Shown: positions 1 through 4,974 of the stretch, piece by piece
How positions within the stretch are numbered: position 1 is the stretch's first letter
How the letters are laid out: every line of letters begins with the position of its first letter
DNA from: a virus
Lineage: Duplodnaviria > Heunggongvirae > Uroviricota > Caudoviricetes
IMG/VR virus record: IMGVR_UViG_2654587568_000009
Direction: 5' to 3' (one strand)
Length of the DNA: 4,974 nt
Notes under the pieces: generated by a model
Databases searched by the model: none
What the model saw: only the letters and a program-made list of their open reading frames with translations
What the model was told of the DNA's origin: nothing
Made by a program: the position numbers and the translations under genes

Positions 1-252
1 GTGCCGTTGTCAGCGGCGCAGCCGGGCGATGTGCTGCTGTGCTGTTTTGGTTCATCGGTGCCGAATCACGCCGCAATTTACTGCGGCGACGGCGAGCTGC
101 TGCACCATATTCCTGAACAACTGAGTAAACGAGAGAGGTACACCGACAAATGGCAGCGACGCACACACTCCCTCTGGCGTCACCGGGCATGGCACGCATC
201 TGCCTTTACGGGGATTTACAACGATTTGGTCGCCGCATCGACCTTCGTGTAA
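1..252 (+). CDS. K: Tail assembly protein K, C-terminal 83 codons (5' end lies upstream of the window; the GTG at position 1 is not a real start)
   Basis: Frame-1 ORF runs open from the window edge to TAA at 250-252. The translation (...DVLLCCFGSSVPNHAAIYCGDGELLHHIPEQLSKRERYTDKWQRRTHSLWRHRAW...) matches my recollection of the C-terminus of lambda gpK (NlpC/P60-type tail-tip assembly protein). It overlaps the start of the next gene exactly as K overlaps I in lambda. Confidence 0.85.
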   Translation: MPLSAAQPGDVLLCCFGSSVPNHAAIYCGDGELLHHIPEQLSKRERYTDKWQRRTHSLWRHRAWHASAFTGIYNDLVAASTFV

Positions 253-791
253 AAACGGGGGCCGAAGCTATCCGTGCGCTGGCCACACAGATCCCGGCGT
301 TTCGTCAGAAACTGAATGAGGGCTGGTATCAGGTGCGCATTGCCGGGCGTGATGCAGGCGAAACCGAATTATCTGCCCGTCTTAATGAGCCGCTGGCAAA
401 TGGTGCCGTGATCCACATTGTGCCGCGTCTGGCGGGTGCCAAAAGTGGCGGTGTTTTTCAGGCAGTGCTGGGTGCGGCGCTGATTGCTACGGCAATCTGG
501 ATGCCGGGAATCAGTATCGCTTTCAGTGACATTCTCTTTTCTATGGGGGCAGCGATGACGCTTGGTGGTGTTGCACAGATGCTGGCTCCTAAACCCCAAA
601 CCCCCCGAACGCAGACAACGGATAACGGCAAACAGAACACCTATTTCTCCTCACTGGATAACATGGTTGCCCAGGGCAATGTTCTGCCTGTTCTGTACGG
701 TGAAATGCGCGTGGGGTCACGCGTGGTTTCTCAGGAGATCAGCACGGCAGACGAAGGGGATGGTGGTCAGGTTGTGGTGATTGGTCGCTGA
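150..791 (+). CDS. I: Tail assembly protein I (tail tip assembly), 213 aa
   Basis: ATG at 150 preceded by a purine-rich GAGAGAGG (131-138); stop TGA at 789-791. The translation (MAATHTLPLASPGMARICLYGDLQRFGRRIDLRVKTGAEAIRALATQ...VAQGNVLPVLYGEMRVGSRVVSQEISTADEGDGGQVVVIGR) is recognisably lambda gpI-like at both ends. The start overlaps the K reading frame by 103 nt in a different frame, as in lambda. Confidence 0.9.
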   Translation: MAATHTLPLASPGMARICLYGDLQRFGRRIDLRVKTGAEAIRALATQIPAFRQKLNEGWYQVRIAGRDAGETELSARLNEPLANGAVIHIVPRLAGAKSGGVFQAVLGAALIATAIWMPGISIAFSDILFSMGAAMTLGGVAQMLAPKPQTPRTQTTDNGKQNTYFSSLDNMVAQGNVLPVLYGEMRVGSRVVSQEISTADEGDGGQVVVIGR

Positions 792-809
792 TGCAAAATG
801 TTTTATGTG

Positions 810-839
810 AAACCGCCTCCGGGCGGTTTTGTCGTTTAT
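810..839 (+). terminator. Terminator-like hairpin in the I-J intergenic region (function uncertain: weak intrinsic terminator or RNA stability/processing structure)
   Basis: Perfect inverted repeat AAACCGCC (810-817) / GGCGGTTT (822-829) with a 4-nt loop TCCG (818-821), followed by a T-rich tract (TTTTGTCGTTTAT, 827-839). It lies wholly in the 60-nt gap between the I stop (791) and the J start (852). Confidence 0.35.
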
Positions 840-851
840 GGAGCATGACGA

Positions 852-3800
852 ATGGGCAAAGGAAGCAGTAAGGGGCATACCCCGCGCGAAGCGAAGGACA
901 ACCTGAAATCCACGCAACTGCTGAGTGTGATTGATGCCATCAGCGAAGGGCCGATTGAAGGTCCGGTGGATGGATTAAAAAGCGTGCTGCTGAACAGTAC
1001 GCCGGTGCTGGACAGTGAAGGGAATACCAACATCTCCGGTGTCACGGTGGTGTTCCGGGCCGGTGAGCAGGAGCAGACACCGCCGGAGGGATTTGAATCC
1101 TCCGGCTCCGAGACGGTGCTGGGTACGGAAGTGAAATACGACACGCCGATCACCCGCACCATCACGTCGGCAAACATCGATCGTCTGCGCTTTACCTTCG
1201 GTGTGCAGGCACTGGTGGAAACCACCTCAAAGGGGGACAGGAATCCGTCGGAAGTCCGCCTGCTGGTTCAGATACAACGTAACGGTGGCTGGGTGACGGA
1301 AAAAGACATCACCATTAAGGGTAAAACCACCTCGCAGTATCTGGCCTCGGTGGTGGTGGATAACCTGCCGCCGCGCCCGTTTAATATCCGGATGCGCAGG
1401 ATGACGCCGGACAGCACCACAGACCAGCTGCAGAACAAAACGCTCTGGTCGTCATACACCGAAATCATCGATGTGAAACAGTGCTACCCGAACACGGCAC
1501 TGGTCGGCGTGCAGGTGGACTCGGAGCAGTTCGGCAGCCAGCAGGTGAGCCGTAATTATCATCTGCGCGGGCGTATTCTGCAGGTGCCGTCGAACTATAA
1601 CCCGCAGACGCGGCAATACAGCGGTATCTGGGACGGAACGTTTAAGCCAGCATACAGCAACAACATGGCCTGGTGTCTGTGGGATATGCTTACCCATCCG
1701 CGCTACGGCATGGGGAAACGTCTTGGTGCGGCGGATGTGGATAAATGGGCGCTGTATGTCATCGGCCAGTACTGCGACCAGTCAGTGCCGGACGGCTTTG
1801 GCGGCACGGAGCCGCGCATCACCTGTAATGCGTACCTGACCACACAGCGCAAGGCGTGGGATGTGCTCAGTGATTTCTGCTCGGCGATGCGCTGTATGCC
1901 GGTATGGAACGGGCAGACGCTGACGTTCGTGCAGGACCGGCCATCGGATAAGGTGTGGACCTATAACCGCAGTAATGTGGTGATGCCGGATGATGGCGCG
2001 CCGTTCCGCTACAGCTTCAGCGCCCTGAAAGACCGCCATAATGCCGTTGAGGTGAACTGGATTGACCCGAACAACGGCTGGGAGACGGCGACAGAGCTTG
2101 TGGAGGATACGCAGGCCATTGCCCGTTACGGTCGTAACGTCACGAAGATGGATGCCTTTGGCTGTACCAGCCGGGGGCAGGCACACCGCGCCGGGCTGTG
2201 GCTGATTAAAACAGAACTGCTGGAAACGCAGACCGTGGACTTCAGCGTGGGCGCAGAAGGGCTTCGCCATGTACCGGGCGATGTCATTGAAATCTGCGAT
2301 GATGACTATGCCGGTATCAGCACCGGTGGTCGTGTGCTGGCGGTGAACAGCCAGACCCGGACGCTGACGCTCGACCGTGAAATCACGCTGCCATCCTCCG
2401 GTACCACGCTGATAAGCCTGGTTGACGGAAGTGGCAATCCGGTCAGCGTGGAGGTTCAGTCCGTCACCGACGGCGTGAAGGTAAAAGTGAGCCGTGTTCC
2501 TGACGGTGTTGCTGAATACAGCGTATGGGGGCTGAAGCTGCCGACGCTGCGCCAGCGACTGTTCCGCTGCGTGAGTATCCGTGAGAACGACGACGGCACG
2601 TACGCCATCACAGCCGTGCAGCATGTCCCGGAAAAAGAGGCCATCGTGGATAACGGGGCGCACTTTGACGGCGACCAGAGCGGCACGGTGAATGGTGTCA
2701 CGCCGCCAGCGGTGCAGCACCTGACTGCCGAAGTCACCGCAGACAGCGGGGAGTATCAGGTGCTGGCGCGATGGGACACACCGAAGGTGGTGAAGGGCGT
2801 GAGCTTCCTGCTCCGTCTGACCGTAACAGCGGACGACGGCAGTGAGCGGCTGGTCAGCACGGCCCGGACGACGGAAACCACATACCGCTTCACGCAACTG
2901 GCGCTGGGGAACTACACGCTGACAGTCCGGGCGGTAAATGCGTGGGGGCAGCAGGGCGATCCGGCATCGGTATCGTTCCGGATTGCGGCACCGGCAGCGC
3001 CTGTCACTATTGAACTGATACCAGGGTATTTTCAGATAACAGCGGTCCCGAAACTGGCTGTATATGACCCGACGGTGCAGTTTGAGTTCTGGTTCTCGGA
3101 AAAGCGGATTATCGATATCAGGCAGGTTGAAACCAGCGCGCGTTATCTTGGTACGGCGCTGTACTGGATAGCCGCCAGTAGCAATATTAAGCCGGGTTAT
3201 GATTATTACTTTTATATCCGCAGCGTGAACACCGTAGGTAAATCGGCATTTGTGGAGGCCGTCGGTCGGGCGAGCGATGATGCGGAAGGTTATCTGAATT
3301 TTTATAAAGGGTTGATCAATAAAACGCATCTCGGCAAGGAACTGCTGGAAAACTTTGAGCTGACGGAAGATAACGCCAGCAAACTGGAGGAGTTTTCGAA
3401 AGAGTGGAAGGACGCTAACGATAAATGGAATGCCATGTGGGGCGTCAAAATTGAGCAGACCAAAGACGGCAAACATTATGTCGCGGGTATTGGCCTCAGC
3501 ATGGAGGACACGGAGGAAGGCAAGCTGAGCCAGTTTCTGGTTGCCGCTAACCGTATCGCGTTTATTGACCCGGCAAACGGGAATGAAACGCCGATGTTTG
3601 TGGCGCAGGGCAACCAGATATTCATGAATGACGTGTTCCTGAAACGCCTGACGGCCCCCACCATTACCAGCGGTGGCAATCCACCGGCATTTTCCCTGAC
3701 ACCGGACGGAAAGCTGACTGCTAAAAATGCGGATATCAGTGGCAGTGTGAATGCGAACGCCGGGACGCTCAACAACGTCACGGTAAATGAAAACTGTACG

Positions 3801-4265
3801 ATTAAGGGCATGCTGGAGGCGACCCAAGTCAGAGGGGACTTCGTTAAAGCTGTATCCAAATCATTTCCGAAACAGGCTGGTACGTGGGGTAACACGGAAA
3901 CACCAAACGGGACGGTTACAGTCACCATCAGCGATGATCATAACTTTGACCGTCAAATCATTATTCCGCCCATTATCTTTAACGGAATAGCGTATAGCTA
4001 TCCGGGAAGTGGTAATAACCCGGGAGGTACAAGGTACACGGGTTATGGTTTTGAAGTTCGCAAAAACGGTGTATTAATCGCATCCAGAGAAACTAAAGGG
4101 GCCATTCCCGGTAGTTACAGTGCGGTTATTGATATGCCGAGTGGCAGGGGAAGCGTCACTCTGGAGTTTAAGATTTTCCAGAAAGGCAATCAGGGGGCAG
4201 GCAATATCACCGACTGTACGGTGATTGTGACCAAAAAAGCGGCTTCCGGCATCAGTATTCGTTGA
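852..4265 (+). CDS. J: Host specificity protein J (central tail fibre / tail tip), 1137 aa
   Basis: Uninterrupted 3414-nt ORF. ATG at 852 is preceded by GGAG (840-843) with an 8-nt spacer; stop TGA at 4263-4265. The N-terminus ([45 protein letters not shown]...) and most of the length match my recollection of lambda gpJ (about 1132 aa). The central region contains fibronectin type III-like repeats, and the C-terminal ~160 aa occupy the position of the receptor-binding domain. Confidence 0.95.
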
Positions 4266-4286
4266 AATTGTTATAACCCATATAAG

Positions 4287-4312
4287 GGCACCAGAAATGG
4301 TGCCTTTTTTAT
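4287..4312 (+). terminator. Rho-independent (intrinsic) terminator downstream of J
   Basis: 7-bp stem GGCACCA (4287-4293) / TGGTGCC (4298-4304) closing a GAAA (GNRA-type) tetraloop (4294-4297), followed immediately by TTTTTT (4305-4310) and ATT. It sits 22 nt after the J stop codon. Confidence 0.75.
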
Positions 4313-4334
4313 TGCAGAAAAGCGAGAGGTAATT

Positions 4335-4934
4335 ATGCGTAAAGTTTGTGCAGCCATTTTGTCCGCAGCCATCTGTCTGTCCGTATCCGGTGCGCCTGCA
4401 TGGGCGTCTGAACATCAGTCCACACTGAGCGCGGGGTATCTTCATGCCCCGACGAACGTTCCCGGCAGCGATGATCTGAACGGGATTAATGTGAAATACC
4501 GTTATGAGTTTACGGACACGCTGGGGCTGGTGACGTCATTCAGCTATGCAGGAGACAAGAATCGCCAGCTGACCCGTTACAGCGATACCCGCTGGCATGA
4601 AGATTCTGTGCGTAACCGCTGGTTCAGCGTGATGGCGGGGCCATCTGTGCGCGTGAATGAATGGTTCAGCACGTATGCGATGGCGGGTGTGGCTTACAGC
4701 CGTGTGTCGGCTTTTTCCGGGGATTATCTCCGCGTAACTGACAACAAGGGGAAAACGCACGATGTGCTGACCGGAAGTGATGACGGTCGCCACAGTAACA
4801 CGTCTCTGGCGTGGGGGGCTGGCGTGCAGTTTAACCCGACCGAATCCGTGGCCGTTGATGTCGCTTATGAAGGCTCCGGCAGTGGTGACTGGCGCACTGA
4901 CGGTTTCATCGTGGGTGTCGGTTATAAATTCTGA
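4335..4934 (+). CDS. lom: Outer membrane protein Lom (Ail/Lom/PagC/Rck family 8-strand beta-barrel), 199 aa
   Basis: ATG at 4335 with RBS GAGAGG (4324-4329) and a 5-nt spacer; stop TGA at 4932-4934. The N-terminus MRKVCAAILSAAICLSVSGAPAWA-SEHQ is a typical Sec signal peptide with an AxA cleavage motif. The C-terminus ends in ...GFIVGVGYKF with a terminal Phe, the beta-barrel outer-membrane protein signature. The sequence is recognisably lambda Lom-like, and its position immediately after J matches lambda. Confidence 0.93.
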   Translation: MRKVCAAILSAAICLSVSGAPAWASEHQSTLSAGYLHAPTNVPGSDDLNGINVKYRYEFTDTLGLVTSFSYAGDKNRQLTRYSDTRWHEDSVRNRWFSVMAGPSVRVNEWFSTYAMAGVAYSRVSAFSGDYLRVTDNKGKTHDVLTGSDDGRHSNTSLAWGAGVQFNPTESVAVDVAYEGSGSGDWRTDGFIVGVGYKF

Positions 4935-4974
4935 TTAGCCAGGTAACACAGTGTTATGACAGCCCGCCGGTTCA

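Follow-up and report, generated by a model that had tools for sequence, protein, structure and literature searches.

The distal tail operon and its J-lom region

The window, by which we mean the whole stretch of 4,974 nucleotides that was analysed, covers the distal end of a lambdoid tail operon. According to its open reading frames it holds the 3' end of K (1-252), I (150-791, a match to the Pfam family Lambda_tail_I), J (852..4265, + strand) and lom (4335..4934, + strand). J, the tail-tip attachment and host-specificity gene, encodes 1137 amino acids and matches six J-specific Pfam domains, including the C-terminal receptor-binding domain PF12421. A 123-aa open reading frame on the minus strand (4074-4445) lies antisense over the J-lom junction, and nothing supports it as a gene.

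Over positions 1-3821 the window shares 92.5% nucleotide identity with lambda. The similarity ends at 3821, is absent over the receptor-binding end of J, the J-lom spacer and most of lom, and is back at 4807-4970. In nucleotide comparison, the receptor-binding end of J (3822..4265, + strand) is of the phage 434 type and diverged from lambda, and it has a GC content of 47% versus 56% for J as a whole. Of 5426 complete E. coli genomes, 4987 contain sequence that matches parts of the window, with a prophage of EPEC E2348/69 as the best match (98.5% over the whole window). The best phage match is cdtI (97.8% over 3900-4974). Lambda h434 imm21 (OM418627) is 96.1% identical at the nucleotide level over 4200-4974, and its J-lom spacer is identical to that of the window. 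Its J shares 93.3% of the last 150 amino acids and its Lom 94.5% amino acid identity with their counterparts here, so that the two phages are separated by point differences only across the J receptor domain and Lom. The central tail fibre of phage 434 targets OmpC (PMC12502783). Based on the likeness of the J end, Lom and the spacer to those of h434, the window carries the phage 434 version of the J-lom block, and the region is, by sequence, that of a lambdoid prophage of phage 434 type.

The order J, terminator, lom, terminator and side-tail-fibre gene (stf) recurs in cdtI, Ayreon, the E2348/69 prophage and h434. This arrangement is ordinary and already present in annotated public records, and nothing in the window itself is new, given that annotated phages and prophages match the region at 96-98.5% identity. 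The stretch in which lambda is different (3822-4806) opens at the receptor-binding end of J and extends over lom up to its last quarter. Lambda homology restarts within the 3' end of lom, which may explain how the h434 hybrid comes to have a non-lambda lom together with the 434 host-range region. Among the loci collected for comparison, lambda-identical J-lom sequences were found in low-coverage contigs (L013-L019 and L021-L024) from assemblies labelled Neobacillus, Kitasatospora, Pseudomonas, Shewanella, Bradyrhizobium and others; these are most likely lambda DNA contamination.

The lom gene begins with ATG and encodes a 199-aa precursor of an Ail/Lom-family outer-membrane beta-barrel. The first-pass annotation had assigned it to this family, and the assignment holds: residues 1-199 match the full length of the PF06316 (Ail_Lom) profile (1-199/199, E = 2.7e-121, 403 bits against a cut-off of 23). 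Lom is 45% identical to lambda Lom (PDB 9wso_C, E = 2.2e-50). Its whole mature chain is also alignable to OmpX (E about 6e-18) and Ail (3e-17), of the OmpX/Ail/PagC eight-stranded barrels, and the mature chains of these two align from about residue 25-29 of Lom onward. A signal peptide, MRKVCAAILSAAICLSVSGAPAWA, is predicted from the translation at 4335..4406 (+ strand), with probable cleavage after AWA to leave an N-terminus that begins SEHQ. Another likeness to these barrels is the C-terminus (...VGYKF), with the aromatic end typical of outer-membrane barrels. A single-sequence AlphaFold2 model of Lom was of unusable quality (pLDDT 37), and the Foldseek matches of that model in the PDB (entries to 2026-04-08) were noise, with 9wso absent among them. 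Alignment to the Lom, OmpX and Ail chains supports the eight-stranded fold, and the predicted product of lom is an exported 8-stranded outer-membrane barrel.

Lom segments are longer than those of OmpX at the positions of external loops 1-3. The first-pass annotation had proposed comparing lom alleles for variation in the extracellular loops. Across four Lom clades, 43% of the columns at OmpX-strand positions are invariant versus 23% of the other (loop) columns of the mature chain, a split that uses the OmpX strand limits as we take them to be. Lom-specific insertions occur at external loops 1-3 in the four clades, and variation is concentrated there.

The probable J terminator and the lom cassette

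Scanning, folding and covariation all identify a stem-loop between J and lom (4284..4307, + strand; core GGCACCA-GAAA-TGGTGCC at 4287-4304). It starts 19 nt past the J stop codon and consists of a 10-pair stem, of which 7 are core pairs, and a 4-nt GAAA loop, followed by UUUUUUAUU; the T-run, TTTTTTATT, occupies 4305..4313 (+ strand). The scan returned three terminator-like sites in the window, a number that is not above chance (mean of 4.1 in shuffled sequence), and the J-lom hairpin has the longest stem of these by far. The 30-nt hairpin element folds at -15.2 kcal/mol (z = -4.7), a stability that none of 200 shuffles attains. In lambda the hairpin upstream of lom is weaker: it has 5-6 pairs, its U-run is interrupted, and it folds no more stably than shuffles.

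Covariation was assessed in 22 distinct J-lom spacer variants from related loci. In these, 88.6% of stem cells pair; after a shift of the 3' arm by 1-3 columns the figure is 62% or less. The pair changes at two stem positions, among GC, AU and GU at one and among CG, UA and UG at the other, and 16 stem cells have changed on both sides, a number reached by none of 500 shuffles. The stem arms occur as GGCACC/GGTGCC, GGCGTC/GACGCC, GGCGCC/GGCGCC, GGCACCTC/GAGGTGCC and AGCGCTC/GGGCGCT. Larger samples yielded further hairpin variants that preserve the stem, including one with an inverted loop: in L390 and two other loci the apex reads GGCGCCATTTCTGGCGCC in place of GGCGCCAGAAATGGCGCC, and the stem is kept. 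One further lom locus (L385:1410-1503) has unrelated sequence in place of both the hairpin's 5' arm and the end of J; only the 3' arm, T-run and leader still precede lom.

Because relatives keep the pairing by compensatory base changes, the hairpin is a selected structure. It is a predicted, conserved intrinsic terminator, and it is annotated as a terminator in phage Ayreon. The strong intrinsic terminator that had been placed ahead of lom is thus borne out by the length of the stem, the folding energy and the covariation. The sole Rfam match in this region, STnc50 (a Salmonella sRNA family; 4234-4314), scores 21.8 bits against a gathering score of 55; its end coincides with the terminator, and we rejected it as a generic terminator resemblance.

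Two short elements flank the hairpin. Between the J stop codon and the stem lies TTATAACCC (4271..4279, + strand), which is nearly invariant in the spacer alignment and is conserved beside unrelated J 3' ends, in lom-containing and lom-less junctions alike. Behind the T-run comes the 21-nt lom leader (4314..4334, + strand), with a Shine-Dalgarno sequence, GAGAGG, at 4324-4329. This places the ribosome-binding site 5 nt before the lom ATG and confirms the earlier description of it as good and as belonging to lom. The previously given spacing of 24 nt is also correct, counted from the end of the T6 run at 4310 to the ATG at 4335. The leader is the same in every distinct spacer variant that precedes a 199-aa lom, and is unchanged in two loci, L012 and L033, where the lom-like sequences are 62% and 42% identical to this Lom. 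It differs in Citrobacter, in L020 and in lambda.

A sensitive search with positions 4200-4974 brought up phages that match the J end and the hairpin only and have no lom. In ev207, Lambda_ev245 and PhiR63_2, annotated J is followed directly by stf. The lom-less junction reads J stop codon, TTATAACCC, the same hairpin, TTTTTTATT and then TGTGGAGTGAATATG, which belongs to stf. At the lom junction, TTTTTTATT leads into GCAGAAAAGCGAGAGGTAATT, the ATG and the body of lom, AGCCCGCCGGTTCAGGCGGGCTTTTTT and then GTGGGGTGAATATG, again of stf. The two kinds of phage therefore part immediately after the T-run, where those with lom read GCAGAAAAG... and those without it TGTGGAGTGAATATG. Exact matches to the lom-less junction occur in 86 IMG/VR contigs, and the lom junction occurs in at least 120. 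Identical variants of the J end plus hairpin are found on both kinds of junction, and the variant of the window itself is one of them. In L205, stf follows directly on a 300-nt stretch that reaches up to the junction and has 98.7% identity to window positions 4014-4313.

Comparison with these lom-less relatives (ev207, Lambda_ev245, PhiR63_2 and L205) defines lom as part of a present/absent cassette (4314..4974, + strand), whose left junction is the 3' end of the T-run and whose 3' end is incomplete in the window. The cassette of Ayreon is 674 nt long, from GCAGAAAAG to GGCGGGCTTTTTT. It is made up of the 21-nt leader, which carries the ribosome-binding site, followed by lom and a second terminator. 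In the window, this downstream terminator (4961..4974, + strand) is represented by its 5' arm, AGCCCGCC (4961-4968), and the loop GGTTCA, and is then cut by the window end. Homologues that are 96-98% identical complete it as AGCCCGCC-GGTTCA-GGCGGGC-TTTTTT and continue past the window end with GGCGGGCTTTTTT and then GTGGGGTGAATATG, of stf. The downstream terminator and the start of stf are present in nearly all lom loci, and the terminator is annotated in Ayreon, where the region that contains it (65 nt) folds at -22.6 kcal/mol in all, with an 8-bp GC stem at this position.

Since the same J end and hairpin stand directly before a virion gene, stf, in phages that have no lom, the hairpin is best read as the terminator of J. 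By these comparisons, lambdoid tail operons of this group have it as a constant feature, with or without lom. The first-pass annotation had taken it to insulate lom from the tail operon, a reading that does not survive the finding of the same hairpin before stf. One and the same 199-aa Lom clade follows three different clusters of J receptor domain, so that lom reassorts as a unit of its own. The junctions are no guide to whether lom was inserted or deleted. One locus (L248:4200-6405) has J, the hairpin, lom, a second terminator broken by an N, a 241-aa C-terminal J fragment, the hairpin again and a second lom; this is either a duplicated block of receptor domain and lom or an assembly error. 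Two Lom features are likewise annotated in phage PhiR49_1.

Moron status and transcription of lom

A consensus promoter scan found no promoter-like site on the + strand of the window. In a weight-matrix scan for sigma-70 promoters over 3900-4340, the best score was 8.7 bits, below the mean best score of 9.8 bits in shuffled sequence. Consensus scans of this kind miss weak, activator-dependent and alternative-sigma promoters. The best-scoring site, TTGAAG (4051) -16- TGtATTAAT (4073), was rejected, as it lies inside J and scores below the shuffled maximum. Two candidates downstream of the terminator were rejected as well: TTGCAG (4312-4317) is without a usable -10, and TTTATT-17-AATTAT would start transcription past the lom ATG. 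TTGAAA (4262-4267) and TATAAG (4281-4286) are both present and 13 nt apart, as previously reported, and the scans agree with the earlier judgement that the region contains no convincing sigma-70 pair. In the window, TTATAACCC reads TGtTATAAC and resembles an extended -10, with a score of 5.9 bits; the TG is absent in most variants. The conserved TATAAC, TG-extended here, could be a -35-independent promoter. With a leader of only 21 nt, the cassette itself is too short for a promoter. Our literature search returned no mapped lom transcription start or promoter, beyond a statement that the lom promoter is little known.

Published expression data come from other phages. Lambda lom is cited as expressed in lysogens, and one microarray study did not detect lom in the lysogen and called its promoter little known. 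In a 2025 study, plasmid-expressed lambda Lom protected strongly against lambda-vir and not against T7. The same study, citing ribosome profiling, describes lambda Lom as constitutive from the prophage and as rising dramatically late in infection. If so, lom of lambda is not uncoupled from late transcription. For the short-tailed phage Phi24B, equal lom expression has been reported in lysogens and induced cells, so that some lom genes are expressed independently, though the genomic context is another one. The earlier proposal that lom is expressed from the prophage independently of late transcription is not sustained, as the layout is no proof of it and lambda Lom, according to the study just cited, rises late in infection.

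So, is lom a moron? A canonical moron is flanked by a promoter of its own on the upstream side and a terminator on the downstream side (Juhala et al. 2000, in the summary given by PMC3594210). In relatives (ev207, Lambda_ev245, PhiR63_2, L205 and the 86 contigs) J and stf are neighbours, and lom is an additional gene set between them. The lom gene has its own factor-independent terminator downstream, as completed in the 96-98% identical homologues. The 440 nt upstream contain no sigma-70 match that scores above shuffled sequence. Base composition does not set lom apart from its neighbours: its GC content (56.0%) equals that of J (55.9%; I has 56.7%), with no sign of foreign origin. Thus lom shares with lambdoid morons of the HK97 gene 15 type the extra gene, the downstream terminator and dispensability for the virion, and differs from them in having no detectable promoter or room for one and no GC difference. 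On sequence features, lom is a moron by position, with two classical features, the promoter and the GC difference, missing. The usual moron layout claimed in the first-pass annotation therefore stands in part. The facultative insertion between J and stf and a downstream terminator belong to it; the upstream terminator is that of J, no promoter was found, and the GC content is the same. The downstream terminator could not have been seen in that annotation, since it begins at 4961 and the window stops within it.

In lambda, polymerase modified by Q reads through the terminators of the late operon. We consider it probable that the hairpin is a conserved J-distal terminator and that lom is a promoter-less cassette behind it, expressed mainly with the late operon, with lysogenic expression coming from unmapped upstream initiation or from leak. 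The J terminator would stop ordinary RNA polymerase, and Q-modified polymerase would pass it, as in lambda. Late transcription must pass this terminator, because the virion genes stf and tfa lie downstream. The lom cassette (~674 nt) sits exactly between the T-run of the J terminator and the ribosome-binding site of stf. Given that the cassette has no promoter, lom is most likely made mainly on the late read-through transcript. In the lysogen, weak upstream initiation and leak through the terminator would presumably supply a trickle of lom. By comparison with lambda Lom, the protein so made is likely to work at the surface of the cell, where the receptor pathway used by the phage itself is a possible target. 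We infer both the Q read-through and the low lysogenic expression from lambda.

A dedicated promoter that overlaps the 3' end of J and the terminator, the arrangement considered in the first-pass annotation, would instead make lom an autonomous moron. Its -10 could be TATAAC (4272-4277) or TATAAG (4281-4286), transcripts would originate at the hairpin or within it, lom would be shielded by the terminator from transcription upstream, and prophage expression would not depend on Q. The reported expression of lambda lom in lysogens and the uncoupling of lom expression from induction in Phi24B speak for such a promoter, as do the near-invariance of TTATAACCC beside otherwise unrelated J ends and the extended -10-like TGtTATAAC of the window. 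A start within the loop would drop the 5' arm of the hairpin and so might escape termination. However, no site scores above shuffled sequence, most variants lack the TG, and the second AT block takes many forms (ATAAAG, ATATAC, AGAAC and others). Transcripts that began at about 4284 would still include the entire hairpin. Moreover, TTATAACCC and the hairpin stand equally before stf where lom is absent, and so are not a control region specific to lom. We therefore regard a dedicated promoter as unlikely.

Two further explanations concern the hairpin rather than the promoter. The conserved spacer (TTATAACCC, hairpin and leader) could serve mainly as a recombination joint at which J receptor domains, lom alleles and stf are exchanged, with termination secondary. 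In favour of this, the stop codon of J is where different J types become similar, Lom clades combine freely with clades of the J receptor domain, the junctions of the cassette fall in both T-runs, and the leader is kept in L012 and L033 despite the divergence of their Lom. A joint at the DNA level, though, predicts neither compensatory changes in RNA pairing nor a T-run after both hairpins, and any functional element conserved in a spacer would be expected to gather mosaic joints as a side effect; we think it quite improbable that recombination is the main role. Even less probable, to the point of being hardly credible, is that the hairpin is an RNA-stability element, either a 3' stem that protects J mRNA or a processed 5' stem-loop that stabilises lom/stf mRNA. 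Conservation through covariation and the position at a gene boundary in a long polycistronic transcript would suit it, but a GC-rich stem that runs straight into a U-run is what marks a terminator, and a stabiliser has no need of the U-run.

Lom and a possible link to the receptor pathway of the phage

The lom gene of lambda (NC_001416 18965-19585) occupies the same position between J and stf, with a hairpin and a T-rich run upstream and a strong terminator downstream. It shares the GAGAGGT ribosome-binding site with lom of the window, and its last 160 nt and the downstream region are homologous. The lambda protein differs in length (206 aa vs 199 aa here) and is 45% identical. The receptors differ too: lambda J binds LamB, and 434-type J binds OmpC. 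PDB entry 9wso contains lambda Lom and a maltoporin chain of the same sequence as that in the J-LamB complex 8xcj, which indicates that a Lom-LamB assembly has been solved. The recent entries 9wca/9wcb hold an 'A8 gpJ' fragment with OmpC. A literature search found no paper describing 9wso or 9wca/9wcb.

Small genes that block the receptor of the phage lie beside the receptor-binding gene in T5 (llp) and in phi80 and N15 (cor), and Llp and Cor are lipoproteins. The likeness of lom to these systems is in the arrangement, a gene for a small exported outer-membrane protein immediately after the host-range gene. In addition, lambda Lom has been deposited together with the lambda receptor LamB and blocks lambda-vir. 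In contrast to Llp and Cor, Lom is a beta-barrel, and the Lom clades seen here do not track the J receptor-domain clades. The 199-aa Lom clade follows three J receptor-domain clusters that are mutually 40-61% identical (66, 25 and 87 loci). The 207-aa lambda-like Lom clade mostly follows an A8-like J domain and twice a lambda-like domain. Among the lom loci compared, no Lom residue is diagnostic of the type of J. An association of Lom type with J receptor-domain type, as expected of a receptor-specific blocker, was thus not clearly seen in a sample dominated by closely related prophages, which makes this weak evidence.

A tentative and rather doubtful extension of the terminator reading is that lom encodes a surface protein that serves the phage, with its dose set by the J terminator and acting on the phage's own receptor pathway, and not primarily a factor of lysogenic conversion. 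If this were true, unmodified polymerase would give a trickle of Lom in the lysogen and Q antitermination a late flood. The target would be LamB for lambda Lom and OmpC for 434-type Lom, and the effect would be to curb superinfection or wasteful adsorption. Such a role would explain why lom comes immediately behind the receptor-binding part of J.

In view of the recent reports on lambda Lom (its block of lambda-vir, its late rise and its deposition with LamB), lom may be better read as a passenger of the late operon with a phage-directed role than as insulated virulence cargo. It is a textbook case of a prophage gene expressed in lysogens without a defined promoter, and the present comparison narrows the question. 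As lom is a mobile unit that brings no promoter and the terminator ahead of it is resident, lysogenic expression of lom has to come either from J-side sequence that lom-less phages have in common or from leak through the J terminator.
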